NCBI GenBank assembly: GCA_024229695.1
Contig: JAAESD010000232.1
Location: forward strand, 35,809 to 99,808
Reading direction: 5' to 3'
Length of the DNA stretch: 64,000 bases
Source: a bacterium
GTDB lineage: Bacteria; Krumholzibacteriota; Krumholzibacteriia; LZORAL124-64-63
Both the position numbers and the translations under genes were made by a program. The notes beneath the pieces were generated by a model. The model saw only the letters and a program-made list of their open reading frames with translations, did no database searches and had not been told where the DNA came from. Positions 1,780-44,056 of the stretch are shown in pieces (within the stretch, counting starts at the first letter, position 1; each line of letters begins with the position of its first letter).

Positions 1780-1822
1780 TCCCATTCTGTCGTGACACAG
1801 TTTTTTTTTGGAAGGCTACACC

Positions 1823-4996: not shown

Positions 4997-5021
4997 AAAG
5001 CAACTTAAGAGAGGAATAGAG

Positions 5022-23311: not shown

Positions 23312-25470
23312 TGTCTGAAATAAAGAGAACAGGATTTCTATTTGAAATTGGTACCGATGAATTACCAGCTCGTTTTCTGCCTGTAGAACAAAAGCATGTG
23401 GAGAAATCTCTGGGAGTTGCGTTAACAGACCTAAGGCTTCCCTATGAGGCCATGCAGGTGTTTGTTGCGCCCAGGCGGCTTTCAATTCTGATTGATGGTC
23501 TTGCTGTTTCACAAGAAGATGTAACTGTTGAGATTAAAGGTCCACCTGCAAAGATTGCTTTTGATGACGATGGCAAACCAACAAATGCAGCTGTCGGCTT
23601 TGCTAAGAAGAACGGGATTGATGTTTCTGATTTGTATGAGATTGATGACGGCAAGGGACAGTTTGTCGGAGCAAAGAAATATGTTCTAGGTAAGTCTGCT
23701 GCAGAGCTGTTGTCTGAGAAAATTCCTGAAATCCTGAAAACAATACCTTTTCCAAAAACTATGCGGTGGGGCAGCAGTGATTTTGTCTATGCCCGACCAA
23801 TTCAGTGGTTGGTTGCTTTATTGGACAAGGAAGTTGTGCCTGTTGAGTTTGGCAGTCATATAGCTGGCAGAGTGTCCAGGGGACACAGAACACTGGCATT
23901 GGGTAGAGAAATATCGATTGACAGTTCGGATAGCTATCTAACTCAACTCCAAGATAACTTTGTAATTGTTAATCAAAACCTCAGGATGGAAATAATATCC
24001 AAAGGCATAAGTGAAGCTCTTTCAAACATCGAAAATGCAAAGTGTATGGATGATCAGGATTTGTTAATCGAGGTTGCAAACATATGTGAATATCCGACAC
24101 CATTTGTTGGCTCATTCAGTGAAGACTTCTTTGAGCTTCCAGATGAGGTTATTGTTACGGCTCTTAAATCCCATCAACGATATTTTTCTGTTGAGAAAAA
24201 AGATGCACCTGGTCTGCTCCCGTATTTCGTTGCAGTCAGAGATGGTGGTTCTGAGGCTTTGGATAATGTCAGGCACGGAAATGAGAAGGTTCTCAGGGCA
24301 AGGCTAAGTGATGCACTCTTTTATTGGGAGTTTGACCAAAGGCAAACCCCGGACGAACATATTTCCAGACTCTCAAGCGTTACTTGGATTGAAGGCTATG
24401 GCTCAATGCTGGACAAAGTTGAACGCGTTAAAAAGCTTACCAAATGGATTTGGGAAAACGGAGCTGGTGTAGACGAAATGCCTGCAGATTTGGTCAGGAC
24501 AGCTGAAATATACAAGTTTGATCTGGTCACAGAGATGATTAAAGACGGTAAGGAATTTACAAAACTTGAAGGACTTATTGGTGCTCGCTATGCTGCTGCG
24601 GCAAAAGAGAGCAGCCAGGTCTGTGATATTTTGCAGGAGTACAACAGGCCTCGTTCTGCTGGTGACGAAGTCTCAGAAAACAAGTTGGCGTCAATACTGT
24701 CGATTGCCGAGCGAATTGATACCCTGGCTGGTTGCTGGCTGGCAGGATTTTCTCCAACCGGAGCTAAAGATGCTTATGCTTTGCGCAGGCACACATTGTC
24801 TACTCTCAGAATAATGGCAGCTCACGATCTGCATATAAATATCCCGGAACTACTCACAGCTGCTCTGGCCAGTTATACAGAATCTGACAACAGCGACAAT
24901 GCAATCCAGGAGATGGAAAAATTTGTATCAACCAGGCTTCTTGGATATTTCGAAAATCTTGGCTATGAAGGTGACGTTGTTAGAGCTGTCTTACCAACTC
25001 ATGGGCAGGATCCTGTAGATGCGCTAAAGTGGGTAGAGGCGCTTTCTGCTTACAGAAGCAAGGATGATTTTGTCAAATTAGCTACCGGATTCAAACGATG
25101 TAGAAATATTCTGGGAGAAAATGTACTGCGTGGCCAAGATCGCAGATTATCTCCCGAGCGCTGGGGGAAAGGTGGAATGTCCCCAGAAGGTGTCAATTTC
25201 GACTCTTTACCCGAACCAGCCGAGATTTCTTTGCGTGATAGCGTACGTCATGAAATATCAAATCTGATAGCTGCTGAATCTGAGCAGGACTATAATACAG
25301 TATTTTCAGTTTTATCCGGTTTAGGGCCTGCAATTGACGAATTTTTCGATTCTGTGAGAGTAAATACCGATAATCAAGAATTAACGAGCATTCGTCATGA
25401 TTTTTTACGTGAAATACACTCTCTTTTTGCAAGGTATGCTGATTTCTCTGAAGTTGTACCTTCAGATTAG
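23311..25470 (+). CDS. glyS: Glycine--tRNA ligase beta subunit
   Basis: A 719-aa ORF lies immediately after glyQ, overlapping its stop. GlyS-like segments such as TPFVGSFSEDFFELPDEVIVTALKSHQRYF and a C-terminal anticodon-binding region are present. Confidence 0.88.
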   Translation: MSEIKRTGFLFEIGTDELPARFLPVEQKHVEKSLGVALTDLRLPYEAMQVFVAPRRLSILIDGLAVSQEDVTVEIKGPPAKIAFDDDGKPTNAAVGFAKKNGIDVSDLYEIDDGKGQFVGAKKYVLGKSAAELLSEKIPEILKTIPFPKTMRWGSSDFVYARPIQWLVALLDKEVVPVEFGSHIAGRVSRGHRTLALGREISIDSSDSYLTQLQDNFVIVNQNLRMEIISKGISEALSNIENAKCMDDQDLLIEVANICEYPTPFVGSFSEDFFELPDEVIVTALKSHQRYFSVEKKDAPGLLPYFVAVRDGGSEALDNVRHGNEKVLRARLSDALFYWEFDQRQTPDEHISRLSSVTWIEGYGSMLDKVERVKKLTKWIWENGAGVDEMPADLVRTAEIYKFDLVTEMIKDGKEFTKLEGLIGARYAAAAKESSQVCDILQEYNRPRSAGDEVSENKLASILSIAERIDTLAGCWLAGFSPTGAKDAYALRRHTLSTLRIMAAHDLHINIPELLTAALASYTESDNSDNAIQEMEKFVSTRLLGYFENLGYEGDVVRAVLPTHGQDPVDALKWVEALSAYRSKDDFVKLATGFKRCRNILGENVLRGQDRRLSPERWGKGGMSPEGVNFDSLPEPAEISLRDSVRHEISNLIAAESEQDYNTVFSVLSGLGPAIDEFFDSVRVNTDNQELTSIRHDFLREIHSLFARYADFSEVVPSD

Positions 25471-25492
25471 GTTTTATTTGATTTACAACTTT

Positions 25493-25527
25493 AGTCAGGA
25501 CTTCAAGTTGAAGTCCTGACTTTTTTA
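25493..25527 (+). terminator. Rho-independent terminator ending the glyQS array
   Basis: The 14-bp perfect stem agtcaggacttcaa / ttgaagtcctgact is followed by TTTTTT. Confidence 0.75.
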
Positions 25528-25538
25528 CATTTAAGGTA

Positions 25539-25567
25539 TTGACTCAATATTAGATTTTATGTACAAT
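25539..25567 (+). promoter_or_regulatory. Sigma-70-type promoter: TTGACT, 17-nt spacer, TACAAT
   Basis: TTGACT lies at 25539-25544 and TACAAT at 25562-25567. This implies a leader of about 270 nt before the 25847 start. Confidence 0.5.
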
Positions 25568-25846
25568 ACACGTTGCGACTCAAACAAAGGTAAAAGTTTT
25601 TTCCACTTGCGACGTTGTGCCGTTCCACTTTCTAGTGAGATCCTAACTTGACACTTACTTGCTAGTTTGCGAGTCACCACGTCGAAAGCTTCCAACTGAG
25701 AACATTCTGTTTTCAGCAGTGGTGCTATCGACAGGAATTTCACTTTTGCCTAATCTGTAGGGTTTCGATACCGCTTGAGCGGCGGCGTCGGAACAAGTCC
25801 TTTCACCTTTACCATTTGTTAATTGAATTAACAGTGGGGGGAAAGT

Positions 25847-28831
25847 ATGAGAAAACTCACTCTCGTTAGTTTGGCCTTGGTTATTCTTACCGGATCTGCA
25901 CTTGCTTCTATTGGATCTTACGATCTAGCTGACGGCAAATATGAGCAGGTCTTTAATGCAACTCCAATGAATGCATCACGTGCAGACACCGTTTATCTTA
26001 TCGGTGGACCTGACCGTGACGATGGTAAATTCCAAGATGATCTTTCAGGTACACAACCTGAAGATGAAGGTTGGTTTGGTGTAGACCTTACTGCAAAAGT
26101 CCCAACCTGGCATGTTAGTACTTATCGCACAGGTGTAAACACTGCATATTGTGGCGATGAGCTTATTCCTTCTTGTGGCGTCGGCGATCCTATCGGTGGC
26201 TACGCAAACTCTTACTGGGAGCTTCTAGACTGGTCTGGAACTGCTCCTGATCCTTTAGCAGCCACAGTTGTTGACGTTACTGGAACAATCTGGTACGACA
26301 ACGAGCCTGGTTATGACTACACATACTTTGCTGTAGAAGAAACAGGCGGAATGATGGCGTATGGAACATGGAACGGTATTGGCGATGCTGAAGCTATCGC
26401 TGTTAACGTTACTGTTGATCCTGCTAATTATATTGGCCCTGGTCTTGATCAAATCCACGTACAGTTCATCGGTGGTTCTGATAGTGCTTGGTCGGATTCT
26501 GATTGTGATTGGCCAACTCAAGGTCACACAAACCTTGATGACATTGCTGTATCATTTAATGGCACTCAAGTGATTTTCGATGATTTCGAAAGTGGCCTTG
26601 GTGTTAACTGGACAGTTGTTCTACCACCTGCTGTTGGCGACTTTGCTAAAGTATGGCCACGTCTAGGTGACGCTGATGAATGTAAATCAAATGATTCACC
26701 TCAGTTTGCTTTCATCGATGATGGTCTTGTTGTTCCTGGTACCGGTGGTACTCTTGGAGTGGGAGACGCAACTTATGGTCCTGGTGGCTGGGCAGTCAAC
26801 CTTCTTGGTGGACTTGCTGGTCCTGATTACCATCACCAGAATGAAATCTGGTCTCCAGTTTTAGCGTACCCAGTAGGTGCTTATGATGGAGCTCAGTTTG
26901 ATTACGATGTATATCGTCATCAAATTCTTAATAATGGACTTTTCTATGTATGGCATGTTCGTTCTTCAATTGACAACGTCAACTGGACATCATGGCAAGA
27001 TCGTAACTTTGTATACTATGGTGGTCCAGACTACCTGCGTATTGAACAACCAGTTACTGACTTGTTGGAGCCTGGTCGTATGTTCGTTCAGCTTGCTATT
27101 GGTACAAATGAGTTGGGTTACCTCTGGGGCTTTGAAGGCACTGATGCAACTCCAGGTCCTTACTTTGACAATGTCTCTTTCAGAGTTTACGAGTTTGGTG
27201 GTCCTGGTATCTCCACTCGTGAAATTGATATAGCACAAGACAACTTCCCTGCTATTGGTACTATTAACTATGGTGATCTAGCAACTAACGATGTTAGATT
27301 TGACATGGCTAGAAATATTGCCCTTGAAGCGGATATGATTAACCTTCCTGGTGACTCAATTGTCTTTGACATTGTTGCTGTTCGTACAGGTTCAGTTCTT
27401 GCTGGTATTCCAACTCTGAATTACCACATGGACAGAAACCCTCTGTTCGATCCAGTCCGAAACCCTGCATACCCAGCTGTTGATACAGTCGTTGGTGACT
27501 CAATCTTCCTGGACACAGGTGCTTTGATAGCAGATCGTTACAGTTTTGATCTTCCAGATGATGAAGACTTCTTCTTCCCTGGTGATGTAATTCATTATTA
27601 CATTTCTGCTTCAGACGACCTTGGTGGAACATCCACATTGCCATCAGACCTTGATGGTTTTGGTGTTTTCCCAGGTGATCCTCTGTATCAACCATTTATT
27701 TGGAACAGTAGCTATGTTGTTCGCGCTCTTCCTACAATGGAAGATGAGCTTGGCGCTCAGCCTGCCATTCTGTTATGGAATGACTTTGCTGACCGTGGTG
27801 GCGAAAATGAGTGGCAATATGCTCTGAACACTCTTGGTTACCAAGAAGGTGTTGACTATGATTACTACTATACCAATGGTCCTTCCTCTGGTGTAGGTAA
27901 TGGTCTTGGTGGACGTGCAACTCCTTCCACACTTGCTGGTTATGAGACTCTTCTCTATACCTCAGGTAACCTTGGATCATTTACTCTAAGTAATGGTGAC
28001 TATGCTAACGATCCTGGTGATGATATCACTTTGGTTAATGACTGGTTAGAACTAGGTGACAAGAACGTATTGTTCACCGGTGATGATCTGGCAGATGACT
28101 TGATGGCTTCTGGTGCAAACGGAATCTCTTTCGTTAGTACCTGGTTGTCAGTTGACTATCTTGGTGATGACTTACGTCCAGTTATTGGTGGACAGTCTGC
28201 ACCTCTGGTACTGCCAATTGTTGGTAATACTGTTGGCCTGACCACAGAGTTTATTGCATATGGTGGCTGCCCTGTATTCAACGACTTTGACATGGTTTTC
28301 CCAAATGGTACTTGTGAGCGTATTGCTGAATTTGCCGATGCTTCTGGTAACGGTGGAGTTTACAATGGTTATGCTGCAGGTGTTTACAATTGGGATGTAA
28401 CATATACAGCAGATGTAGTCTACTTCCCAGTTGACTTCATGTACTGGTATAACACAGGTGCACCTGGAAACGCTCGTGCAGCTGCTCTAAATGAAATTCT
28501 GTTATTCTTTGGCCATCTTGGTAGTAGCACTCCTACTGGCGTAGTGCCAGGTGCTGGAACCTTTGCAGCCAAGAACTTCCCGAATCCATTTAACCCATCT
28601 ACTAAAATTGAATGGACCATCCCTAGTGCTGGCGATCTTTCAATTAAGGTATACAACGTTCAAGGTGAGCTCGTTAAGACTCTCATGGACGAAGTTGTTT
28701 CAGAAACTTCAGGTGTAAAGACCTGGAATGGTACAAACAACGCTGGTAGCGATGTTGCTTCTGGTATCTACTTCTATGAAGTACGTTCAGGCAGCAATGT
28801 TACTGTTAACAAAATGGCTCTCGTTAAGTAA
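25847..28831 (+). CDS. Large secreted hypothetical protein with a canonical T9SS C-terminal sorting domain
   Basis: A signal peptide (MRKLTLVSLALVILTGSALA) is present. The C-terminus FPNPFNPSTKIEWTIPSAGDLSIKVYNVQGELVKTLMDE...SGIYFYEVRSGSNVTVNKMALVK matches the T9SS sorting-domain pattern. No catalytic motif was recognised. Confidence 0.75.
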   Translation: MRKLTLVSLALVILTGSALASIGSYDLADGKYEQVFNATPMNASRADTVYLIGGPDRDDGKFQDDLSGTQPEDEGWFGVDLTAKVPTWHVSTYRTGVNTAYCGDELIPSCGVGDPIGGYANSYWELLDWSGTAPDPLAATVVDVTGTIWYDNEPGYDYTYFAVEETGGMMAYGTWNGIGDAEAIAVNVTVDPANYIGPGLDQIHVQFIGGSDSAWSDSDCDWPTQGHTNLDDIAVSFNGTQVIFDDFESGLGVNWTVVLPPAVGDFAKVWPRLGDADECKSNDSPQFAFIDDGLVVPGTGGTLGVGDATYGPGGWAVNLLGGLAGPDYHHQNEIWSPVLAYPVGAYDGAQFDYDVYRHQILNNGLFYVWHVRSSIDNVNWTSWQDRNFVYYGGPDYLRIEQPVTDLLEPGRMFVQLAIGTNELGYLWGFEGTDATPGPYFDNVSFRVYEFGGPGISTREIDIAQDNFPAIGTINYGDLATNDVRFDMARNIALEADMINLPGDSIVFDIVAVRTGSVLAGIPTLNYHMDRNPLFDPVRNPAYPAVDTVVGDSIFLDTGALIADRYSFDLPDDEDFFFPGDVIHYYISASDDLGGTSTLPSDLDGFGVFPGDPLYQPFIWNSSYVVRALPTMEDELGAQPAILLWNDFADRGGENEWQYALNTLGYQEGVDYDYYYTNGPSSGVGNGLGGRATPSTLAGYETLLYTSGNLGSFTLSNGDYANDPGDDITLVNDWLELGDKNVLFTGDDLADDLMASGANGISFVSTWLSVDYLGDDLRPVIGGQSAPLVLPIVGNTVGLTTEFIAYGGCPVFNDFDMVFPNGTCERIAEFADASGNGGVYNGYAAGVYNWDVTYTADVVYFPVDFMYWYNTGAPGNARAAALNEILLFFGHLGSSTPTGVVPGAGTFAAKNFPNPFNPSTKIEWTIPSAGDLSIKVYNVQGELVKTLMDEVVSETSGVKTWNGTNNAGSDVASGIYFYEVRSGSNVTVNKMALVK

Positions 28832-28854
28832 TTTACTTTTCGTTTAGTCTTTGT

Positions 28855-28883
28855 GGCGCCCCTTTTCAGGGGCGCCTTTTTTT
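28855..28883 (+). terminator. Rho-independent terminator
   Basis: The structure is ggcgcccc-ttttca-ggggcgcc followed by TTTTTTT. Confidence 0.8.
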
Positions 28884-28940
28884 GTGTATCTGCTTTGAAC
28901 AAAATATTTTAATTTGCAACAAGTTAAAGTAAAGTCTGGG

Positions 28941-28970
28941 TTGACACTGTTACGGTTCAATCCCTATATT
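28941..28970 (+). promoter_or_regulatory. Possible sigma-70-type promoter (TTGACA ... CTATAT/TATATT)
   Basis: TTGACA lies at 28941-28946 and a -10-like CTATAT sits 17 nt downstream. The -10 element is weak. Confidence 0.3.
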
Positions 28971-29101
28971 TCATTGGAAGAAGTATAGTAGTCTTGACCC
29001 TGAAACTTCCAAGTTGATCTTGGTTGGTTTTCGTGACAGCAGTGTGTTTTTTACAATTGAAACCATTGCTGTTTGCGGTGTATGAAAGGCGTACACTGAA
29101 T

Positions 29102-31771
29102 ATGACAATGAGAAAACGCTTGGCTGTGTTTTACCTGGTTCTTTTGGTTTTAATTATCGGGTCCCTAATTGGTTGCCGAGCTTTTAATCCAGAAGTGGTT
29201 ATTGTTAATCGTCCACCTGAGACTTTTATTATTGGTGCACCTAATGAGGAAGCAGGTGGCTATTTCCATTACCATTTATTCTGGTATGGTTCTGATGATG
29301 ACGGGCATGTAGAGCGGTTTGTCTGGGCACTGACTGATAGTACCGTTCAGGACGATGAAACAGATGAAGATGAAGAGGATGCAAGATTCAACCCTGCGCT
29401 TCATATCAATACTTTGGATATAGGCCACTGGACTACCAGAACAGACACTATTTTTGATTTCCAGATTGGGTTGGGATCATTGACGTCGGTTGATAAGACT
29501 TTTCATATTGTTGCTGTTGATGATAGAGGAGACTACGATCGAACGCCAGCGCGATTATATTTCCTGATAAATGCGTTAGGATCTCCGTCTATAACTTTCT
29601 TGACTGAAGAATATGGAATTGAAACTGAGTTGCAAGCGGGAGAGGTTGATACTTTCAGTTATGGCAAGCCATATGCTTTGAGCTGGACGGGAGAGACTCC
29701 TAACATTCGTTCTTTCACTGATGAGTTACTTGCTGAGCGAGATACTGTTTTTTCTATTGACCCTGATACCGGTGAACCTGTTTATGATGGACTGCTTGGC
29801 TTTAAGTATAAAATTTCACTTGCTGATTGTGATGATGCTATCGAGGATTGCTGGAATCCACGCCAGTTTGATGATGCTGTGAATGACAGTGTCAGCTTCT
29901 TTGGTGGAGTGACTCGCGTTGATTTTACAAACGATGGATCAGGTGCAGGGCTTTTCAACAGGGTAATCGCCAGTGGAACTCATACCTTACTTGTAAATTC
30001 AATTGATGTTGCAGGTGTAGAAGTATCAGCTATAGATAGAAGGCAATATTTTGTTGTGAACTATGATCCAGATACACATCTGGTTCTTGAAAGTGACCCT
30101 GCTGCCCTGCAGGATCCATTTGGAAATGATGGTCTGACTTATCCTTATTACACAGTATGGACAGCTGAAGCTACAGGTCTGGTTGAATCTGATCCTGTAT
30201 CCTTTTCCTCAGGGGAGAGACTACCTCATCGGGCAAAGGTTGTTTTTAAGATTCTGGGTTGGGATGATGCAAGAGATCTCAGACTGTTGGATAACCCGGA
30301 CAATCAAGTTGATTCAGGAGTAACTTTTCAATCTAAAATTGAAGGTGTTGCCTTTTTCACTGGCACAACTTCAAGTTACAGATTTAGAACGCAGTACAAT
30401 GATTTGACCTGGACTCCAGACTGGAATGATTATAATACTGTTTCGGCAGACACAATCAGTTTTTTAACAGGTCCTGCCGAGTTTGAATTCAGGGCCCGGT
30501 CAGTTGATGAACACACCCGTCGAGATAACAGCTTCAGCAATATTGAGTTTTCAGCTAACTTTGAGCCATCTATTACCTTTATAGAAACTGTTGTCAACAG
30601 TGAATCCAGTTATCAGATTGGTGATGAGATTCCAAGTGAGCCGGATACTTTGTGGTGCAGCTTTTTTAATGCTCCAAGTCCCTTGCCTGGTGAAGACTGG
30701 AAACATCTGAATTTTGTTACCACTCCTCAAACTTGTTGGGTCAATCCTGTGTCAGGTTCTACTACTTTTCAGGAACCAAATAATTTAGATGGTTTGCTGG
30801 TAATCCCTGGTAACTTCTATGAATATGAACTTTACTTCACTGGTGATGATAATCAGTTGGAGAAACGTTTCAGTGCTGACAGAGCGCCACATCAGGTTAA
30901 TAACAATCCCATTGATCGTGCTCCTTCATGGAGGTTTGAAGTAAGATCTGAACATGATCCTGATAACGTTTTGAATGACGGTGGATTGATTGATAATATT
31001 ACGGCTGTTACCACGGAAGCAGAAAATTGGACACATGTTGATGATAATCCACGTGTTCCAATTGTTATTGATGAAGACGGCGTTTGGCGTGCTCGTATAG
31101 ATGTTTTTGTACCTAATATTCTGGCTGCTACTAGTCCATATTACTTTGCTGGTTATTATTTACCTACATTAACGGATAATCATGGTAATTACCTTGTGCC
31201 AGCACCCTGGATTGCAGATTCAGACGCAAGTGATTGGTCTTATGACCAAGGTCTGCGGCAAATGACAATTTATGCTCCAGAGAGAGAGCAATTCCTTAAC
31301 CGTCAATTGCCTCTGGCTGTTCAAGCAGGAACAGGTTCCGGCGATGATTATGAGCAGATGTATATTTGGGATTTTGAGTCTGTTGTAGATAATGGTGATA
31401 GTGTAGTCCTTACCTCAGCAGTGGATCTTGAAATCGGTCCAGAGGGTCTGGATGGGATGACATTACAGCTCAGAGATGACACTTTTGCTTGGTCGGTTGT
31501 TCCACTTACTACTCCACAGTTGGGCTTGAATACTGTATCTGCGGTAATGCGTGATGCAACTACAATGGATGCCAATCCCAACAGGTGCCGATATGTATAT
31601 TACACAGCTCTTCGAGTACCGGAGTTCCATGGCGATTCTGGATCGGAACCGTATCCAGGTTTTGCTGAAAAACTAAAATTGCATCAATTCTGTCTGGAAA
31701 GTGAATTAGTTGAAAAACAGTTCTACATGTGCTTTGTTGGCAATGACTTTATATATCCACCTAGGCCTTAA
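29102..31771 (+). CDS. Large hypothetical lipoprotein that is a paralogue of the next gene and contains repeated modules with a W-G-D-DG motif
   Basis: A lipoprotein-type signal (MTMRKRLAVFYLVLLVLIIGSLIGC) is present. The segment HYHLFWYGSDDDGHVERFVWAL aligns with SFSWTGIDPDGEIVGYYWKI in the downstream gene. The ORF extends back to 29024 (TTG). Confidence 0.65.
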   Translation: MTMRKRLAVFYLVLLVLIIGSLIGCRAFNPEVVIVNRPPETFIIGAPNEEAGGYFHYHLFWYGSDDDGHVERFVWALTDSTVQDDETDEDEEDARFNPALHINTLDIGHWTTRTDTIFDFQIGLGSLTSVDKTFHIVAVDDRGDYDRTPARLYFLINALGSPSITFLTEEYGIETELQAGEVDTFSYGKPYALSWTGETPNIRSFTDELLAERDTVFSIDPDTGEPVYDGLLGFKYKISLADCDDAIEDCWNPRQFDDAVNDSVSFFGGVTRVDFTNDGSGAGLFNRVIASGTHTLLVNSIDVAGVEVSAIDRRQYFVVNYDPDTHLVLESDPAALQDPFGNDGLTYPYYTVWTAEATGLVESDPVSFSSGERLPHRAKVVFKILGWDDARDLRLLDNPDNQVDSGVTFQSKIEGVAFFTGTTSSYRFRTQYNDLTWTPDWNDYNTVSADTISFLTGPAEFEFRARSVDEHTRRDNSFSNIEFSANFEPSITFIETVVNSESSYQIGDEIPSEPDTLWCSFFNAPSPLPGEDWKHLNFVTTPQTCWVNPVSGSTTFQEPNNLDGLLVIPGNFYEYELYFTGDDNQLEKRFSADRAPHQVNNNPIDRAPSWRFEVRSEHDPDNVLNDGGLIDNITAVTTEAENWTHVDDNPRVPIVIDEDGVWRARIDVFVPNILAATSPYYFAGYYLPTLTDNHGNYLVPAPWIADSDASDWSYDQGLRQMTIYAPEREQFLNRQLPLAVQAGTGSGDDYEQMYIWDFESVVDNGDSVVLTSAVDLEIGPEGLDGMTLQLRDDTFAWSVVPLTTPQLGLNTVSAVMRDATTMDANPNRCRYVYYTALRVPEFHGDSGSEPYPGFAEKLKLHQFCLESELVEKQFYMCFVGNDFIYPPRP

Positions 31772-31806
31772 TTGGTCAAAGTTGGTTTGTCTACAGGAGG
31801 TTGGGT

Positions 31807-34326
31807 TTGTTAATCAGAAATAGGTATGCAGTAGCTGTGCCACTGATTGTCTTATTGAGTGTGATGGCCATGATGTATGGTTGTTCTCCAAGTGATCAGC
31901 TTGGTGGGGCTGAACTGAATAATGCCTTGCCAGATACAAGAATTACAGGTACTCCGCCGGTTCTTCGGGAGACAGATTTTATTGTCAGCTTCAGTTGGAC
32001 AGGCATAGATCCAGATGGTGAAATAGTTGGTTACTATTGGAAGATTGCCAACAACGGCATTGACGGGTTGGGCGTACTGGATACACTCACAATAGATCCA
32101 GCAACCGGTGATACTTTAAATCCATGGTTTTATACAGAAGCAACAGATACAACCTTTATTGTCTTAGCCCGTGAGCTTGGATTTGAAGGAGATTCATGGT
32201 TGCCTGAAAACGAGCAACGCTTTTACGAGCATCATTCACTTTTCATAAAGGCTGAAGACAATGATGGCGGGCTTGATCCAACCCCTGCCCACATAACTTT
32301 TACTGCTACAACACTTGCTCCATCCATAACATTAACCAGTCCTTCTACCTGGACCGGACAAGACTATTCTGTTTCCAGCCCTACTACTGTATCTTTACAG
32401 TGGGCCGGGGTTGATCCTGATTTCGAATTAGGTGTTCCTATTAAGGTCAGGTACCTGAATAAAAGAGCTATCGGTCCGGATGGTAATTACGTTACTACCA
32501 GTTATGGATTCTATCAAAACGTTGATTTTCTGGTAGATTTTAATGACTCATTATGGAGTGACTGGGTTAGATATGGTGATGATCCCGAGGATCGTATTTA
32601 TACAAAAGCAGATATCCAGATAAGAGATGATGATGGTGAAAGAATTGCCTATCTCTTTGCACTTCAGGCACAAGACACTGCTGGAGCTGTAAGCCAGGAC
32701 AGGATTTATAATAGAACTGTATATAATTTTAAAGTTAGTGAAGGTCAATCCCCATCACTTAACGTTAGAGAACGGTATCTTGGTGCAAGAGATTATTCTG
32801 GCGTAAATGGGGTTGCAAGATTTGATATCGCAAAGAATCAGCCTCTTGAGTTTAGTTGGTATGCCTCTGCTGAACATTACGGTGGGGAAGTTATTGCTTA
32901 TCGTTATGGGTGGGATGTTGAAGATCCAAACAACGAAGAAGATCCGGGCTGGTCAGTTTCCTGGGGTAATACAGCTTTACACAAAAAGGCACCAATTAGG
33001 TCTTTTTCAAACTCCACGCACAGTCTTATTGTCCAAGCAATTGATAACTCGGGGTTGATTACCAGAGCGACATACTATGTGGCAGTTGTACCTGTGCCAG
33101 ATCCAGCTGCCCAGTTCCCGTTGCTACTTATTGACGATGTAGTAGATCACAATACAAATGCCTGGCCTACTCCTGGAGGCGCTTCTCAATACGAAGACAT
33201 CAAGCGTGATGGGTTCTGGGATGAAGTTCTGGCTGGTCAGGGCGGAGTTTCCGGATATGAGCCAGCAGTTCATTCAATAGATGTTGAATCGAACAGTTTA
33301 TTTGGTTACCGAGATGCGGTTAACTACAGAGTTTTACTTTGGACAACTGCTTACGGTTCACGTTATGTGACTGACTTGTTTGCTGGAACGTCCCAGTATG
33401 TCTGGCTGGCAGCCTATCAACAAAGTGTTGGAAACTTGTTTATGGCAGGAGCAAGTTCCATGTATAACTTTTCAAAGGAGCCTGGAGACACACGATCTTG
33501 GGCAATGCCAATTATTTATAACACTTCCGATGAAACAGTGACTTGTGAGAATGTGCGTTTGATTGGATATGGCACTCGTGAAGAAGAAGGTACCGGGGAA
33601 ATAATTAGAGTTGGAACAGAGCTCTATCCGTATAGAACCAACGGGATGTCTGTCATTGACTTGCTGTCCCCTTCTTTCATATATGAATGCTATTACAGTG
33701 GTGACAGAAAGTCTTCGTGTGTTGGAACCAGGGCAATTACAATTGACCAGGATTTCAAGGATAACTACGTCGACTTCGGGGCATTTCCAGATACAATTGA
33801 AGTCTCACACGATATTATTTGGTGGGATTTTGAACCAGACCTTAATTATGGCGAGGAAATTCCCTCCGTCAACAAACCATACTTGCTTGGCGCTAGTGAT
33901 GAGTTTTATGACATCAATGTGACAGCAAGACCAACACCATGGTCTCCACAATTAATGCCAGATGGCAGTTTGGCTGTAGAGCCAATGTGGCGCCTTTATA
34001 CTCGCTATGACTGGATAATGAACCAACATATTCTTCCAGATTCAGCTGGGGTAATAATAGACTTTGCATATCCTACATTTGCTCCTTCAGACACATGTGG
34101 TGACATTGCATTTGAATTTGGTGGGGAGTATGCCGGTGGTGCTCATGAATATACCAAATTAAATCAGGTACCTCTTGGAGTCTTCGTCTGGCAAACAACC
34201 GAGTCCAAGCCTGGTGGCAAGCCTGATGTGTTATGGGGCTTTGACCCATATGCATTTGATAGAGATCCTATAAAACAAGCCATTCGCTGGGTTCTTCTGG
34301 ACCATTTTGAGCTTGATAGTAATTAG
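31807..34326 (+). CDS. Large hypothetical lipoprotein that is a paralogue of the previous gene and contains at least three modules with a W-x-G-x-DPD-G-x-I/V...Y-x-W motif
   Basis: The SD sequence aggagg lies before the TTG at 31807. The signal peptide is MLIRNRYAVAVPLIVLLSVMAMMYGC. The modules are SFSWTGIDPDGEIVGYYWK, SLQWAGVDPDFELGVPIKVRY and EFSWYASAEHYGGEVIAYRYGWD. Confidence 0.65.
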   Translation: MLIRNRYAVAVPLIVLLSVMAMMYGCSPSDQLGGAELNNALPDTRITGTPPVLRETDFIVSFSWTGIDPDGEIVGYYWKIANNGIDGLGVLDTLTIDPATGDTLNPWFYTEATDTTFIVLARELGFEGDSWLPENEQRFYEHHSLFIKAEDNDGGLDPTPAHITFTATTLAPSITLTSPSTWTGQDYSVSSPTTVSLQWAGVDPDFELGVPIKVRYLNKRAIGPDGNYVTTSYGFYQNVDFLVDFNDSLWSDWVRYGDDPEDRIYTKADIQIRDDDGERIAYLFALQAQDTAGAVSQDRIYNRTVYNFKVSEGQSPSLNVRERYLGARDYSGVNGVARFDIAKNQPLEFSWYASAEHYGGEVIAYRYGWDVEDPNNEEDPGWSVSWGNTALHKKAPIRSFSNSTHSLIVQAIDNSGLITRATYYVAVVPVPDPAAQFPLLLIDDVVDHNTNAWPTPGGASQYEDIKRDGFWDEVLAGQGGVSGYEPAVHSIDVESNSLFGYRDAVNYRVLLWTTAYGSRYVTDLFAGTSQYVWLAAYQQSVGNLFMAGASSMYNFSKEPGDTRSWAMPIIYNTSDETVTCENVRLIGYGTREEEGTGEIIRVGTELYPYRTNGMSVIDLLSPSFIYECYYSGDRKSSCVGTRAITIDQDFKDNYVDFGAFPDTIEVSHDIIWWDFEPDLNYGEEIPSVNKPYLLGASDEFYDINVTARPTPWSPQLMPDGSLAVEPMWRLYTRYDWIMNQHILPDSAGVIIDFAYPTFAPSDTCGDIAFEFGGEYAGGAHEYTKLNQVPLGVFVWQTTESKPGGKPDVLWGFDPYAFDRDPIKQAIRWVLLDHFELDSN

Positions 34327-34393
34327 AAATAGCAGGTGGCACATCTTTGTGATGGTGCCGCCTCTGTAAAATGTTCCGAAAGGTGGACTGGCT

Positions 34394-36736
34394 GTGAAAT
34401 TTTGGCCAAACCGTTTGTACGCAGGTATCCATGCACTATTACTGATTACTATATTATCAGGAGTTTTTTCAGTACCTGTTTACGCACAGGATGATGCCTG
34501 CATGGGTGATGATTTGAGAGTACTATCACCATCTTCTGTTGATGTACAATTATCGCTTGAAGGCAGGTTTGGTGCAGTTGTGACCTGGCCGGAGGTGCCA
34601 GATGATATTTCTACGTGTTCAAGCTCAGTAAATTTAGTTGATGTCGATTTTGATATCGACCTTACAGGAGCATTTGCAGATATTGTTGACAGGGAACTGA
34701 ATTTTTATGTTGAAGCTCCTGGAATTATTGGCAGCCAGACGGATAACAGAGTTGTTTTAGCATGGAGCAATGCAAATCAGGAAGCCACCGGCTCAGTCAT
34801 TGGTGAGATAAATCTTTCCAATAGTGGCGGGGCTTATTATTACGATGCAGGATCTTCTCAATGGCTGCAATACAATACAAATTTGCCAATGAATCTTCCT
34901 TATACTGATTTAGGTGCGTTTTCAGCAGCAGTTGGTGCTCAAGAAAAAGTCTTCGCACAAATCTCTTCAAGTGAGTTCTTCTTCGGTTTGTGGATGAGTA
35001 CTACAGATGAAAATGGGGCTAATTGGAGCAGAATTGCCGAGACTCAATTTCCTGATGGACGATTGAATGATTTTGAAGTTTTATGCTCAAGTTTTTCACC
35101 TGATAATTCAAATACCCTGGTTCTTGGAACAAGTAATGAAGGACTCTGGTTAAGCGTAGATGATGGATCTTCTTTCACTCAAGTTGTCGATGGTTTTGAG
35201 GATATTACAAATTGGTCAAATAAACCTGTAACAAGCATTAACTGGGTAGACTCATCACATCTTTATATTGCTGTTAAAAATGCTGGTGTGTACCTGTCAT
35301 CGGATTCTGGTGCATCGTTCAACTCTATTGGCTTGAATGTTGATCTTGTCGGAAACCCTGGCTCCGCTGGTACTGCTGCCTATACAGTAAACCAGATATT
35401 TATTGATGAGGCTGATGTTAATCATATTTACCTTGCTGTTGAAGATTACTGCTTGTATGAAACAACTGATGCTGGAGATTCATGGATCTGGCCAGCTCAA
35501 TCACTGGTTCTTGATGGATCAACTCTAATTCCGGTTAATGGACTAACAATTGTTGTTGATGACAGTTCTGTCATTGTTGGAACGGAGACCAGCGGTATTT
35601 TCAGGACTTCTGATTCTGGTGAAACATGGACTAATGACACAGAGATACTATTTGCTGAAGATACACCAGAGATACTGAATATTATTAATGACCAAAGCCA
35701 ATCCAGACTGCTTGCAATTGCCGATCAATATGGACTTTTAGAGTGTGCGTACGGCGATGATCAATGGGTTGCTCCTTTGGTAGATTTACCCGGAAACACG
35801 GATTGCTCAAAACTGGCAATATCCAGTAATTCGATACTTTGGGTCGCAACTGAAAGAGGTGGTATATTCCAGCCAGATTCATCTCTGTCACTATCTAGCA
35901 CAATCTATAAATCAAGAACTGAAGTGGGCTATCAAGATCTGGAATTTGGAATTAACCTTCTTATCGGTGAAGGTACGCTTTTAGAAACTACAGCATTCGA
36001 CCTGATTTTCCAGGATTTTCAAGGCTATGCTGTTTGGCGGAGTCAGTTTGGTAGCATGGAAGACATGCAACTTATTGGCCTCTATGATAAAAACAATCCA
36101 GAGACATGTATGCTTGATTATTGTGGATATGAAAATTATCCAGTAGAGCCAGAGTGTTGGGCTGAAAAGAGGTCCGCATGTTATGACTTCAGTACTCCTG
36201 GGATGGTAACATTTTTTGATGATGGTATTTTTAACAGCTTCATTTATTATTATGCAGTTTCAACATTTGATTCTGGTAATACAGCTACTATTTCAGGGCC
36301 TGCAATTACCAATGACCCCCTGTATTCACCTCGGTTTCCAAATGATCCATTGATACCGCTTGATGAATTTGGTGATCCAATACTTGTTGGCGATGGGAAC
36401 ATTGTCCGATTTGATGCCAACAGAGACGCCATGAGTGTTGATAGTGAAGAAGCTGTTTATGCATACCCAAATCCGCTTCGGCTTGAAGCTGGATTCCCTG
36501 AAGCACCTGGCGAATTAGTTACTTTTACAAACCTACCCGCAGGTTCCAGAGTAATGGTTTTCACAGTTTCCGGGGATATTGTTGCTGATTTAACTCCTGA
36601 TTTACAGGAGGGACGAAATATTAAATGGTTTACGAGAAATGATTCAGATGAATTGCTTGCATCAGGTGTTTATATTTATAAAGTCGAATCACCTGGCCGT
36701 GAGGACTATTTCAGCAAGATAATTATTATCAGGTAA
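34394..36736 (+). CDS. Secreted BNR/Asp-box repeat protein (sortilin/Ycf48-like beta-propeller repeats) with a T9SS C-terminal sorting domain
   Basis: The signal peptide ends at VPVYA|QDD. Asp-box-like SxDxGxTW motifs include SDSGETWTN, TDAGDSWIW, SDSGASFNS and VDDGSSFTQ. The C-terminus AYPNPLRLEAG...GVYIYKVESPGREDYFSKIIIIR is a T9SS sorting domain. The GTG start carries the SD sequence aaaggtgg. Confidence 0.75.
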   Translation: MKFWPNRLYAGIHALLLITILSGVFSVPVYAQDDACMGDDLRVLSPSSVDVQLSLEGRFGAVVTWPEVPDDISTCSSSVNLVDVDFDIDLTGAFADIVDRELNFYVEAPGIIGSQTDNRVVLAWSNANQEATGSVIGEINLSNSGGAYYYDAGSSQWLQYNTNLPMNLPYTDLGAFSAAVGAQEKVFAQISSSEFFFGLWMSTTDENGANWSRIAETQFPDGRLNDFEVLCSSFSPDNSNTLVLGTSNEGLWLSVDDGSSFTQVVDGFEDITNWSNKPVTSINWVDSSHLYIAVKNAGVYLSSDSGASFNSIGLNVDLVGNPGSAGTAAYTVNQIFIDEADVNHIYLAVEDYCLYETTDAGDSWIWPAQSLVLDGSTLIPVNGLTIVVDDSSVIVGTETSGIFRTSDSGETWTNDTEILFAEDTPEILNIINDQSQSRLLAIADQYGLLECAYGDDQWVAPLVDLPGNTDCSKLAISSNSILWVATERGGIFQPDSSLSLSSTIYKSRTEVGYQDLEFGINLLIGEGTLLETTAFDLIFQDFQGYAVWRSQFGSMEDMQLIGLYDKNNPETCMLDYCGYENYPVEPECWAEKRSACYDFSTPGMVTFFDDGIFNSFIYYYAVSTFDSGNTATISGPAITNDPLYSPRFPNDPLIPLDEFGDPILVGDGNIVRFDANRDAMSVDSEEAVYAYPNPLRLEAGFPEAPGELVTFTNLPAGSRVMVFTVSGDIVADLTPDLQEGRNIKWFTRNDSDELLASGVYIYKVESPGREDYFSKIIIIR

Positions 36737-36779
36737 TTCCGAACTCCGGTTGAATTTACGGAGTCTATTGGCTAAATTT

Positions 36780-36812
36780 GAGCCCGGCATTTATGTCGGG
36801 CTCATTTTATTT
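36780..36812 (+). terminator. Probable rho-independent terminator
   Basis: The stem gagcccggcat / atgtcgggctc has one mismatch and is followed by ATTTTATTT. Confidence 0.5.
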
Positions 36813-36882
36813 CAAATAGACGAAAGCGTCTTTTGTCAGTCTAGAAAATGTTATGAACAAGGTCAACAATGGAGGCAACCTC

Positions 36883-39567
36883 ATGGCCGAGAAGCAAGTT
36901 TATTTTTTTGGTAAAGACGAAACTGAAGGTAATGGAAAGCAGAAAGCTCTGTTAGGTGGAAAAGGTGCCAATCTTGCTGAGATGGCCAGCCTGGGTATTC
37001 CTGTTCCTCCGGGTTTCACAATCACAACTGATTACTGTATCAGCTATCTGAAAGATAGAAAAATTTCTGATGACTTGAAAAATGAAGTTGCACAAGCAAT
37101 CTCAAAAGTTGAGAAAGTTATGGGAAAAAAATATGCTGATAAGGATGACCCGCTGTTACTCTCTTGTCGCAGTGGTGCTAAAGTTTCAATGCCTGGCATG
37201 ATGGATACTGTTCTGAACATTGGGCTGAATGATGAAACTGTACTTGGTCTGGTAAAGCAAAGTGGCAATGAAGAATTCGCCTATGACTGTTACCGTCGAT
37301 TAGTCCAAATGTACTGTGATGTTGTGATGGGTGTTGATGGTGAAAAATTTGAAGATGCAATCGATGCATTAAAATCAGATGTTGGCGTAAAGCTTGACTC
37401 TGAATTTAGCGCAGATCATTTGCGAACTCTTATTTCTACATTCAAAAGTATAACAAAAGAAGAATGTGGAATAGAATTCCCGACGGATCCAGTTGAGCAG
37501 CTATGGGGCAGTGTTGAAGCTGTATTTCGTAGTTGGGATACGCCAAGAGCAATTACCTATCGTGAAATGAACAGGTTCCCACATGATATGGGTACTGCTG
37601 TAAACGTTCAGGCAATGGTCTTTGGTAATATGGGTGAAAACTCTGCAACTGGTGTTGCTTTTACAAGGGATCCATCAACTGGTGAAGACTTCTTCTACGG
37701 TGAGTTTCTTGTCAATGCACAGGGCGAAGATGTTGTTGCTGGAACCAGAACGCCACAATCATTGAATAATGATGGCCGGCACAGGCTTCCTGATGGCAGC
37801 CCTGCAAAAGACATGGAAACCCTGGAAGAAATTATGCCGGAAGCATACAAAGAACTTGCAGATATCAGAGATACATTGGAAAAACATTACTCTGAAATGC
37901 AGGATGTAGAGTTCACAATTCAAGATGGCAGACTATGGATGCTCCAGACAAGAACTGGTAAGCGTACCGGTATATCAGCATTGAGAATTGCTGTTGAAAT
38001 GTATAACCAGAAATTGATGACTCTTGATCAGGCTTTAATGTCTGTTGACCCGGAGATGCACCTGGACCAGATGCTTCATGAGCAGATTGATCCGGATGCT
38101 GAGCTTGAAGTATTGGGACTGGGACTTCCTGCTTCACCTGGAGCAGCTTGTGGAGAAATAGTCTTTACTGCTGAAGCTGCTGTTATTGCTGCTGCTGGCA
38201 AAGATGTTGTATTGGTCAGGAAAGAGACAAGCCCTGAAGATATCGATGGCATGAACTCAGCTACTGGTATTCTAACTGCTCGTGGTGGTATGACCAGCCA
38301 TGCTGCTGTTGTTGCTCGTGGCATGGGTAAGCCATGTGTTGCTGGCTGTGGTGAGCTTATTGTGAATTCTGCTGCAGGTACAATGGAAATTGGCGGCAAA
38401 ACTTTCAAGGCTGGCGATGAGATTTCTCTTAACGGTACTAAGGGTCATGTAATTAATGGACTGGCTCCACTTGTAGCGCCAAATCTTGAAGACCATAATC
38501 TCACTACTTTAATGGGCTGGGCTGATGAGATTCGTCGAATGAAAGTTAGAACAAATGCTGATTCACCTGATGATGCTAAGCAAGCAATCAAATTTGGTGC
38601 TCAAGGTATTGGACTAACCAGAACAGAACACATGTTCTTTGGTGATGAACGTATTTCAAAAATGCGTGAAATGATTCTTGCAGAAAATGTTGAAGGCAGG
38701 ATTAAGGCACTAGCTCATATACTGCCAATGCAGCAGGCTGATTTTGAGGGTATTTTCCGCGCAATGAACGGATTCCCTGTAACTATTCGTTTGCTTGATC
38801 CACCACTACATGAATTCCTGCCAACTTCAGATATGACTGAGAAGATTAAGTCATTGGCTGGTGAATTGAATGTTTCTTACGATCATCTTGTACAGCGTAT
38901 TGATGCTCTTCATGAGTCAAATCCTATGCTGGGTCATCGTGGTTGTCGTCTTGGATTGACATATCCTGAGATTTATGAAACTCAAGTTGAAGCAATCATC
39001 AGAGCAGCACTTGTTGTTAAAGGTGAGGGTGTAGACGTTCAGCCGGAAATAATGATACCACTGGTTGGTACTGTGAAGGAACTTGCTAATCTGAGAACGA
39101 TGGCAGTTGAGTTGGCTGATAAGTTGATTAAAGATTCTGGAACCGATCTTTCTTACCTTGTAGGAACAATGATTGAAATTCCAAGAGCCGCTTTGCTTGC
39201 TGATCAAGTTGCAGAGCATGCAGATTTCTTTAGTTTTGGCACTAATGACTTGACCCAGATGACATTTGGATATAGTCGTGACGATACCAAGGATTTTGTT
39301 GATAATTATATCAGAAAAGGCATTCTGCCTTCTGATCCATTCCAGCAGCTGGATCAAACCGGTGTTGGACAGTTAGTTGAAATGGCTTGTCAAAAGGGTC
39401 GCACAACTAATGGCGATATACACCTGGGAATCTGTGGTGAGCATGGTGGAGATCCAAGCTCAGTCGATTTCTGTCATCGTGTAGGATTGGATTATGTAAG
39501 TTGTTCACCGTTCCGTGTTCCAATTGCTCGTTTGGCAGCTGCTCAGGCAGTAATCAGGAATCGGTAG
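36883..39567 (+). CDS. ppdK: Pyruvate, phosphate dikinase
   Basis: An ATP-grasp N-terminus, the phosphohistidine motif GGMTSHAAVVARGMGKPCVAG and a PEP-utilising C-terminal TIM domain are present. The SD sequence ggagg lies before the ATG at 36883; the ORF extends back to 36853. Confidence 0.9.
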   Translation: MAEKQVYFFGKDETEGNGKQKALLGGKGANLAEMASLGIPVPPGFTITTDYCISYLKDRKISDDLKNEVAQAISKVEKVMGKKYADKDDPLLLSCRSGAKVSMPGMMDTVLNIGLNDETVLGLVKQSGNEEFAYDCYRRLVQMYCDVVMGVDGEKFEDAIDALKSDVGVKLDSEFSADHLRTLISTFKSITKEECGIEFPTDPVEQLWGSVEAVFRSWDTPRAITYREMNRFPHDMGTAVNVQAMVFGNMGENSATGVAFTRDPSTGEDFFYGEFLVNAQGEDVVAGTRTPQSLNNDGRHRLPDGSPAKDMETLEEIMPEAYKELADIRDTLEKHYSEMQDVEFTIQDGRLWMLQTRTGKRTGISALRIAVEMYNQKLMTLDQALMSVDPEMHLDQMLHEQIDPDAELEVLGLGLPASPGAACGEIVFTAEAAVIAAAGKDVVLVRKETSPEDIDGMNSATGILTARGGMTSHAAVVARGMGKPCVAGCGELIVNSAAGTMEIGGKTFKAGDEISLNGTKGHVINGLAPLVAPNLEDHNLTTLMGWADEIRRMKVRTNADSPDDAKQAIKFGAQGIGLTRTEHMFFGDERISKMREMILAENVEGRIKALAHILPMQQADFEGIFRAMNGFPVTIRLLDPPLHEFLPTSDMTEKIKSLAGELNVSYDHLVQRIDALHESNPMLGHRGCRLGLTYPEIYETQVEAIIRAALVVKGEGVDVQPEIMIPLVGTVKELANLRTMAVELADKLIKDSGTDLSYLVGTMIEIPRAALLADQVAEHADFFSFGTNDLTQMTFGYSRDDTKDFVDNYIRKGILPSDPFQQLDQTGVGQLVEMACQKGRTTNGDIHLGICGEHGGDPSSVDFCHRVGLDYVSCSPFRVPIARLAAAQAVIRNR

Positions 39568-41634: not shown

Positions 41635-41660
41635 TTCCTCCCGGAATGTGATTTTATCAC

Positions 41661-43337: not shown

Positions 43338-44056
43338 AGGTATGGTTGTTTGTTCTGTTGGCTGTACTTGTTGGGAATGCATCTGCTGGTTTCAGAGATG
43401 CTGATCAGGGGTGGGTTATTCCTCCCGACGATTGTAGAGAGAGAAACACAGGATATTTCGGCGCAGTTTCAGTGAGTTCATTATATCAAATGCCAGAACT
43501 GCCAATGCAGTCAGTCCTGTCGGGTTGGTCTTCAGAGAAATGGCATATGGCATTCAGGTGGCACAAACTGGGAGGTGATGTATACAGAGAAGATTCGTTG
43601 TCAGTGGATATGCTGTTTGGTGGAAGTTTAAAATTTGGAATCAAAGTGGAACACGAATCGCAGCAGTTTTCAGATGTTCCAGGATGGAACACTTTATACA
43701 GTTTTGTTACTCGGTATGATTATCGTGAATCAATAACTTTAAAATCTACCACTCCGATTTCAGGGGCAATGCTTGCGACCAGAGATTATGAGCAACTATT
43801 GATGATTATACGAAGCGAGGATGTTTTATTCGCTCTGGGGATAGATGATACCAATTCTGGTGAAAAAAGTGTTAGACTTGGGCTTGATTGGTTGCTTCAT
43901 CACATGTTCCGGGTCGGAGCAATAGTTGATACAAGCTCAAGCTCTACTGGATTGACCACATCAATTAAAATCGGCAAAATTCTAACTAGAAGTTCTCATC
44001 TGGCACATCCCGAGCTTGGAATGACGCACAGGTGGCAGCTGATTATTTCAAGATGA
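43334..44056 (+). CDS. Secreted hypothetical protein (240 aa)
   Basis: A signal peptide (MKVWLFVLLAVLVGNASA) is present. The ATGA overlap with the upstream gene suggests translational coupling. Confidence 0.5.
   Translation: MKVWLFVLLAVLVGNASAGFRDADQGWVIPPDDCRERNTGYFGAVSVSSLYQMPELPMQSVLSGWSSEKWHMAFRWHKLGGDVYREDSLSVDMLFGGSLKFGIKVEHESQQFSDVPGWNTLYSFVTRYDYRESITLKSTTPISGAMLATRDYEQLLMIIRSEDVLFALGIDDTNSGEKSVRLGLDWLLHHMFRVGAIVDTSSSSTGLTTSIKIGKILTRSSHLAHPELGMTHRWQLIISR

Follow-up and report, generated by a model that had tools for sequence, protein, structure and literature searches.

A conserved gene quartet for predicted cell-surface proteins, with a structured leader RNA, in Krumholzibacteriota

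Introduction

What keeps four genes for very large secreted proteins, none with a recognizable catalytic domain, together among the housekeeping genes of an uncultured bacterium? We address this question in a 64-kb stretch of Krumholzibacteriota DNA (JAAESD010000232.1, 35,809-99,808, assembly GCA_024229695.1; hereafter the window, in whose positions all coordinates are given), where four plus-strand open reading frames (ORFs), named P1 to P4 in 5' to 3' order, follow the gene glyS. The Krumholzibacteriota have yet to be cultured, and little is known of their cell envelope. We found nothing on these four genes in the literature on Krumholzibacteria/-ota.

Our analysis establishes the gene structure, domain folds, sorting signals and synteny of the quartet, and the conservation of an RNA structure ahead of P1. 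The quartet is a conserved, uncharacterized, lineage-specific set built from known folds. The reading that we favor, with a probability of roughly 45%, is that the region encodes a lineage-specific Krumholzibacteriota cell-surface protein set in two conserved transcription units, and that its products form a non-enzymatic structural or ligand-binding outer-membrane assembly such as a coat or an adhesin. Four genes that almost all genomes of the phylum keep together at a single chromosomal position are good candidates for encoding a core surface structure, and this set pairs type IX secretion system (T9SS) cargo with dedicated lipoproteins outside the Bacteroidota.

Results

The quartet is syntenic across Krumholzibacteriota

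The locus was surveyed in one genome per GTDB species, which gave 79 loci, essentially all from Krumholzibacteriota-type metagenome-assembled genomes (MAGs). The order recO-glyQ-glyS-P1-P2-P3-P4-ppdK, together with two further genes, is collinear in about 60 of the 79 and down to ~30% identity (tblastn), and the quartet is thus syntenic in relatives; an earlier note on this DNA had named a lack of such synteny as grounds for rejecting its reading, and on this point the reading stands. Distant relatives at 25-27% identity retain glyS-P1-P2-P3 followed by a short P4, and the adjacency of P1, P2 and P3 persists to 25% identity with different genes downstream. P1, P2 and P3 each have hundreds of full-length relatives, labeled Krumholzibacteria/-ota or Latescibacteria, with no Pfam domain except a C-terminal domain (CTD). 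Genomes that bear the quartet come from marine, soil, sludge and groundwater habitats.

The earlier note had called the region an island, a description that does not hold: GC content is flat at 0.41-0.45 over the whole 64 kb, and the flanking housekeeping genes recO, glyQ, glyS and ppdK are syntenic as well. Its account of four large co-directional genes fits our data (994, 887-915, 839-841 and 780 aa). P2 has possible starts at 29024, 29102 and 29108 in the ORF list, giving 915-887 aa up to the stop at 31771; ATG 29102 (889 aa) or ATG 29108 (887 aa) is likely, and an NCBI MAG protein 100% identical to P2 has 887 aa. Residues of P2 are numbered here from 29099. P3 probably starts at TTG 31807, which lies 6 nt past an AGGAGG and is the better spaced choice (839 aa). 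All four proteins carry signal peptides, with a lipobox cysteine that is invariant in the P2 and P3 families and signal peptidase I (SPI)-type N-termini on P1 and P4, and all have isoelectric points (pI) of 4.0-4.3 and low Lys+Arg content compared with cytoplasmic neighbors. Scans with Pfam and NCBIfam matched no catalytic family in any of the four or their relatives, in line with the earlier note's remark that no catalytic motif is recognizable.

The genes are organized in two predicted transcription units

Signals in the spacers predict two conserved transcription units, P1 alone with its own promoter, leader and terminator, and a P2-P3-P4 operon (Table 1). The strong promoter and long leader that the earlier note had assigned to P1 are both there, as are the terminators that it placed at 28855 and after P4 (hairpins at 28855 and 36779). 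The spacers measure 376 nt between glyS and P1, 267 nt between P1 and P2, 29-35 nt between P2 and P3 and 67 nt between P3 and P4; in relatives, glyS and P1 are 323-445 nt apart in all 39 loci measured, and P1 and P2 are 208-347 nt apart in 37 of 39, with 942 and 1466 nt in the other two (L018 and L043). The P1 promoter is kept as CTATTGAC[TG]-N17/18-TAnnnT in 39/39 loci examined, and the hairpin after P1 is conserved in position in 23 loci. The P2 promoter, GTTGACAC-N13-ATCCCTATATTT, is invariant in the P1-P2 spacer of relatives, with GTTGAC and CCCTATATTT unchanged across 23 loci. That single promoter, the short gaps (some relatives have overlapping P2, P3 and P4) and the layout conserved across the phylum support the operon that the earlier note had proposed for genes 2-4.

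Around the -10 element of the P2 promoter (28941-28975; columns 231-263 of alignment A8), an extended ATCCCTATATTTCA is invariant in 23 divergent loci. This conservation exceeds what a -10 hexamer needs, which hints at a bound regulator.

Table 1. Coordinates of the quartet and its predicted features in the window.
Feature	Position	Strand	Details
glyS intrinsic terminator, upstream boundary	25493-25521	+	13-bp stem then T run; hairpin and T run at the same place in other loci
P1 promoter, TTGACT-17-TACAAT	25539-25567	+	consensus match 10/12
Structured 5' leader of P1	25572-25846	+	~272-275 nt; conserved blocks, RNAalifold, covariance model
P1	25847-28831	+	994 aa; predicted Sec/T9SS-secreted, SPI-type signal peptide; many Asp invariant
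P1 T9SS type-A C-terminal sorting domain, residues 911-990	28577-28816	+	PF18962, TIGR04183
P1 intrinsic terminator	28855-28876	+	9-bp stem, 8 GC pairs, T7
P2-P3-P4 operon promoter, TTGACA-18-TATATT	28941-28970	+	consensus match 11/12
P2	29102-31771	+	lipoprotein, lipobox LIG-C; chain of immunoglobulin (Ig)-like beta-sandwich domains
P2 N-terminal PKD-like domain, motif LFWYGSDDDGHVERFVWAL	29204-29584	+	hhalign vs P3 domain 1: 99% probability, E 3e-18
P3	31801-34326	+	lipoprotein, lipobox MYG-C; 839-841 aa by start codon
P3 three PKD/FN3-like beta-sandwich domains, residues 40-173, 174-315, 316-432	31918-33096	+	motifs FSWTGIDPDGEIVGYYW, WAGVDPD
P3 C-terminal alpha/beta domain	33097-34323	+	class-I glutamine-amidotransferase (GATase1)-like (ThuA-like) fold without conserved catalytic triad
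P4	34394-36736	+	780 aa; N-terminal domain, BNR/Asp-box propeller, Cys-rich FN3-like domain, C-terminal sorting domain
P4 PorZ-like T9SS C-terminal domain, residues 691-780	36464-36733	+	profile and single-sequence alignment with PorZ
Terminator closing the P2-P3-P4 operon	36779-36804	+	11-bp stem and T run

P1 is preceded by a conserved structured leader RNA

The most original element of the region is the leader of P1, a candidate for a new cis-regulatory RNA that is supported by covariation. Among relatives it measures 260-320 nt and contains blocks conserved in 26-32 loci, which are invariant even though the flanking proteins are just ~45% identical. RNAalifold predictions for clade B show a two-part long-range helix (GACAA/UUGUC and UUCCC/GGGAA) around ~180 nt, internal stems and a 3' hairpin that pairs with a GGGGGG ribosome-binding site. 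The clade to which the window belongs, run independently, gave the same architecture, with GGGCAAAA/UUUUGCCU, UUCC/GGAA and a hairpin on the Shine-Dalgarno (SD) sequence, and the single-sequence minimum free energy fold of the window leader agrees (-86.4 kcal/mol, z -3.47). In the predicted fold of the window leader, the long-range helix joins 25588-25604 to 25734-25750, and the 3' hairpin (25800-25845) pairs with the ribosome-binding site at 25836-25841.

We built a covariance model from clade B and searched it against 1.23 Mb of sequence. It found exactly one copy per syntenic locus, including all clade-A sequences left out of model building, scored the window leader at 40.7 bits (E 5e-12), and gave no match upstream of P1 paralogs, in loci that lack P1 or in the deepest relatives. 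In a 39-sequence alignment fitted to the model, 95% of cells pair, as against 42-58% in slid controls; double changes occur in 22 of the 38 pairs (130 cells, compared with 33.5 in shuffles), a level that 0/500 shuffles reach. The pair count on the pre-model MAFFT alignment is weaker and points in the same direction. None of 4227 Rfam families matches the leader, a scan of 25400-37000 at E <= 1 returning terminator-like noise only.

Since the 3' hairpin pairs with the ribosome-binding site, translation of P1 is probably off by default. Transcription would start at the near-consensus promoter and run through the ~275-nt leader, and a signal (a ligand, protein, small RNA or temperature) might then open the hairpin and allow translation. 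In its length, covarying helices, SD-pairing hairpin and fixed position before one gene family, the leader resembles long SD-sequestering leaders such as riboswitch expression platforms, RNA thermometers and the leaders of surface-layer (S-layer) genes. Unlike known structured leaders, it falls outside all the Rfam families searched and is confined to one class of one candidate phylum. It could enter RNA family databases.

Two other readings of the leader were set aside. Its internal box ACTTGACAC is no second promoter, since no -10 element lies downstream; in clade A the box pairs with GCGAGU. Stops in all frames of the window leader, together with indels that are not codon-sized, make a leader peptide unlikely. 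In the deepest relatives (L083 4294-4691; L084 4057-4518), a 400-460-nt spacer with a promoter precedes the P1-like gene and the leader motif is absent; in L083, a G-run ribosome-binding site is still present after a possible hairpin.

P1 is an acidic, predicted T9SS cargo

The earlier note had read a canonical T9SS sorting domain at the end of P1, and two models recognize it above their cutoffs (PF18962, 32.7 bits against 27; TIGR04183, 30.9 bits against 23). A T9SS CTD was also detected in 34 of 35 syntenic P1 relatives. We propose that P1 (~105 kDa, very acidic and Asp-rich; pI 4.05 and 3.8% Lys+Arg for the mature protein) would be exported by Sec and then by the T9SS through this type-A CTD. 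Outside the CTD, P1 has no Pfam, NCBIfam or PDB match, and in PDB profile searches P1 found its CTD only (as FlgD-Ig) and P2 found nothing; four relatives of P1 have an InhA-like MAM match. In 119 members of the family, conservation falls mostly on Asp, besides two His and a few Cys. Asp-dominated conservation is typical of Ca-stabilized surface modules.

Comparisons of P1 with other proteins of the region gave little. P1 and P2, like every other pairing of domains from the quartet, show no significant similarity other than a shared C-terminal strand motif, with the first domains of P2 and P3 as the exception. A comparison of P1 residues 637-752 with the C-terminal domain of P3 as a possible GATase1-like relationship gave a probability of 9-26% (E 7e-4 to 4e-3), which is suggestive only and which we do not claim. 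No relation appeared between P1 and an M6-like CTD protein encoded nearby in the window (described below).

The P1 family is multi-copy, and its paralogs form tandem arrays (L087 6689-23042; L086 6962-12991), none with the leader RNA. In one genome, five paralogs of ~1010 aa stand in a row after a protein with a glycoside hydrolase family 57 domain and a CTD (GH57-CTD) and an ATP-binding cassette (ABC) transporter; the source MAG has two extra tandem copies (GY752_11220/11225).

P2 and P3 are lipoproteins with divergent PKD-type domains

The lipoboxes of P2 and P3 are strongly conserved: G25 and C26 are invariant among 77 P2 sequences, and among 91 P3 sequences C28 is invariant and G27 is present in at least 90%. 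An apolipoprotein N-acyltransferase gene (Lnt; CN_hydrolase and LNT_N domains) lies at 61890-63431 of the window. Triacylation of lipoproteins is therefore probably within the capacity of this genome, which bears on P2 and P3.

The earlier note had described in P2 and P3 a novel W-G-D-DG sequence module that recurs at least three times per protein and that it could place in no known Ig-like or PKD family. Neither part of this claim survives. The strict pattern occurs only once, at P3 residue 64, and a loose form once in P2, at residue 60. Of the core W-x-G-x-[DT]-P-[DN], P3 has two copies and P2 has one. What recurs is a beta-sandwich fold, present three times in the predicted model of P3 (predicted local distance difference test score 90.9) and at least four times in that of P2. 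Window P2 and P3 have no Pfam or NCBIfam match at E <= 1, and the gathering threshold of PF00801 is not reached; weak PF00801 matches appear in 13 of 48 relatives (best E 7.6e-4). The lipoprotein domains have the PKD-type beta-sandwich fold and a DPDG...Y-x-W signature, and the lipoprotein profile also matches Big_13 Ig-repeat giants. We assign the module, on three independent lines of support from profiles and predicted structures, as a divergent PKD-type Ig domain. A module without a match to a hidden Markov model (HMM) was thus over-called as new, and turned out to be divergent PKD once profiles and structure were applied. Compared with PKD (PF00801/PF18911; the PKD of ColH collagenase, PKD1 of Vibrio PrtV) and Big_13, the P2 and P3 domains fall below Pfam thresholds, are longer than PKD (125-140 residues vs ~85, with long insertions) and retain the motif in just one or two copies per protein.

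Directly after the lipid anchor, P2 and P3 each begin with a homologous PKD-like domain. From there P2 continues as a rod of Ig-like domains, whereas P3 has two more Ig-like domains and a ThuA/GATase1-like head that is catalytically dead. As a lipid-anchored Ig-like string, P2 resembles SusE/F-like and SGBP-B surface glycan-binding lipoproteins and bead-string adhesins; Foldseek matches of its model include SGBP-B, SiiE, PrgB and the Deinococcus HPI S-layer protein. It differs from the SGBP-B and adhesin systems in having no SusC/SusD context and no sequence similarity to them. The P3 fold matches beta-sandwich and GATase1-like accessory modules of glycoside hydrolase (GH) families GH2, GH42 and GH164 and of fucosidases. 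Its C-terminal domain has no invariant His or nucleophile Cys and no Pfam or NCBIfam match. Relative to non-catalytic ThuA-like/GATase1-like domains (PDB 1t0b, 2gk3, 3rht; the IFT52 GIFT domain; OST48), it shows 8-15% identity and no HMM match, spans ~400 residues with large insertions, lacks a Cys-His-Glu triad and, unlike ThuA-like domains, shares its polypeptide with a lipid anchor and three Ig-like domains.

Extra copies of P3-like lipoproteins occur elsewhere (L025 1932-12496; L032, L028, L071). L025 has three, of which two are parted from the third by a protein whose C-terminus is P4-like; the copies at the other loci adjoin T9SS-CTD proteins or a full P1 paralog. That P3 paralogs lie time and again next to CTD proteins or P1 paralogs supports a partnership between lipoprotein and cargo.

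P4 combines a propeller with a PorZ-like sorting domain

P4 has a BNR/Asp-box propeller at residues ~205-515, as the earlier note had said, followed by a Cys-rich FN3-like domain (~520-690) and the CTD. Sortilin-Vps10 is matched in 40/40 relatives and BNR in 32/40. The family profile aligns with BNR propeller structures (GH74 enzymes, a BNR-repeat glycosyl hydrolase) at E 1e-26 to 1e-25; the GH74 matches span just ~150-180 residues of Asp-box blades, and the ~310 residues of the propeller leave room for one. The catalytic cleft of GH74 is formed by two seven-bladed propellers. In deep relatives, P4 is reduced to its FN3-like and CTD part.

The sorting domain of P4, which the earlier note had also called canonical, is less clear-cut. 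TIGR04183 scores it at 20.6 bits, 2.4 short of the cutoff (23), while just 2-4 of 40 relatives are matched by Pfam CTD models; it aligns clearly with the CTD of PorZ, both as a profile (5m11, E 3e-11, positions 671-770 vs 654-744) and as a single sequence (E 1e-4), where the YPNP and SGVY motifs line up. We propose that this PorZ-like CTD would direct delivery of the propeller by the T9SS. As a whole protein, P4 falls far short of the PorZ equivalog score, with 41.6 bits for NF052228 against a cutoff of 260, in the CTD region only. Likewise P1 falls far short of the score for the PorU sortase (NF033707, 30.9 bits against a cutoff of 420, CTD region only).

A T9SS is reported for the Fibrobacteres-Chlorobi-Bacteroidetes (FCB) superphylum (PMC12398890). 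The window encodes an outer-membrane barrel of the PorV/PorQ family at 4986-5936 (NF033709, 158.9 bits, cutoff 90), so the genome carries T9SS parts, with sprA and porKLMN lying outside the window. P1 and P4 share with T9SS type-A cargo and PorZ (P. gingivalis PG1604, PDB 5m11) a terminal CTD beta-sandwich with YPNP and SGVY, and P4 shares with PorZ the combination of a beta-propeller and a PorZ-like CTD, with the PorV/PorQ-family barrel encoded nearby. Unlike PorZ and PorU, P4 has one BNR-type propeller, P1 has no recognizable PorU protease domain, and the organism stands outside the Bacteroidota.

Upstream of the barrel gene, in 1808-5936, is the gene for a 1062-aa protein like the 'T9SS-dependent M6-like inactivated metalloprotease' (its 206 bits for NF052323 stay below cutoff). 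This protein carries an FG-GAP repeat and a T9SS CTD that is borderline. The two genes overlap by 11 nt and look like a cargo-plus-shuttle pair.

Possible roles of the quartet

Because no catalytic domain is detectable in the four proteins, we favor a non-enzymatic structural or ligand-binding assembly. In such an assembly, the P2 and P3 lipoproteins would serve as membrane-anchored stalks or partners for P1 and P4 delivered by the T9SS. From the features described above we infer where the proteins lie (at the surface), that the four associate physically, that the leader regulates, and what the function is. A bolder version would make the quartet an undescribed, Krumholzibacteriota-defining machine, in which P1 is a Ca-stabilized major surface protein carried on PKD stalks of P2 and P3 beside the PorZ-like propeller of P4, and is gated by a new riboswitch-like leader class that senses an envelope or metabolic signal; we regard this version as speculative and unlikely in full.

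Several observations weigh against a coat or adhesin. The mean column identity of P1 is 42%, unusually high for a coat protein; strongly conserved P1 motifs such as YYTNGPSSGVGNGLGGRAT could mark a binding or active site, and the ~600 P1 residues without a family assignment may hide a cryptic enzyme fold. P1 is absent at the quartet position in four loci. The flanking housekeeping genes are collinear too, so some of the synteny may come simply from the overall conservation of genomes within the class. As to the leader, the fit of the 39-sequence alignment to the covariance model favors structure in the pair counts.

A rival reading is a glycan capture or degradation apparatus akin to a Bacteroidota polysaccharide-utilization locus, in which the lipoproteins P2 and P3 would bind glycans at the surface, the P4 propeller would be GH74-like and P1 would be a cargo that binds or acts on carbohydrates. 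This would account for the match of the P4 profile to GH74 xyloglucanases (E 1e-26), the likeness of P3 to glycosidase accessory modules and of P2 to SGBP-B, the InhA-like MAM/jelly-roll matches in some P1 relatives and the GH57-CTD protein beside five tandem P1 paralogs. We nonetheless consider it unlikely: the GH74 matches fall on generic Asp-box blades, in a protein with room for one propeller where GH74 needs two; the locus has no SusC/SusD pair, transporter, regulator or recognized glycoside hydrolase catalytic domain; and the cluster is retained in every sampled habitat, unlike niche-specific substrate loci. It also seems improbable that the four belong to the T9SS itself as accessory or attachment parts, with P4 as the functional counterpart of PorZ, P1 as that of PorU and P2 and P3 as machine lipoproteins. 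Equivalog scores this far below cutoff and confined to the CTD, a multi-copy P1 with tandem paralogs (atypical of a machine part), the loss of the P4 propeller in deep relatives and the lack of a recognized conserved gingipain-type Cys/His protease dyad in the P1 family speak against such roles, even though the P4 CTD is nearer to that of PorZ than to the generic model, phylum-wide conservation and a housekeeping-type location fit a core machine, and the sizes are near (780 aa for P4, a 758-residue chain in 5m11 and a 757-position NCBIfam model for PorZ; 994 aa for P1, 1156 residues for PorU 6za2).

The quartet might also be no functional unit at all, its members being unrelated envelope genes that are neighbors through class-wide collinearity alone. 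We judge this improbable: P2, P3 and P4 are 29-67 nt apart, or overlap in relatives, behind a single invariant promoter, P1, P2 and P3 stay adjacent to 25% identity despite changes in the genes downstream, P2 and P3 share a homologous anchor-proximal domain, and P3 paralogs recur beside CTD cargo. The collinearity of recO, glyQS, ppdK and two downstream genes, the separate transcription of P1 and its absence from four loci count in its favor. As for the inserted island with lipoproteins of a new repeat module outside the Ig-like and PKD families, the missing Pfam and NCBIfam matches of P2 and P3 and the 'hypothetical protein' labels of their database entries speak for it; it is very improbable, contradicted already by the fold and profile results, by the three lines that identify PKD and the profile matches to Big_13 Ig-repeat giants, by the lack of any compositional anomaly and by a position conserved phylum-wide.

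Neighboring genes in the window

Past ppdK, at 39568-45543, the window encodes a 688-aa membrane protein without a family match, a 558-aa protein with LTD, CARDB and FlgD-Ig/CTD domains, and two further ORFs without an assignment. The genes for the 688-aa and 558-aa proteins are syntenic with the quartet in most loci. Nearly all genes in the window are on the plus strand, including 44 of the 47 ORFs that encode 150 aa or more. From 1 to 64000 the GC skew stays positive and the cumulative skew rises monotonically; the window lies on a single leading-strand replichore.

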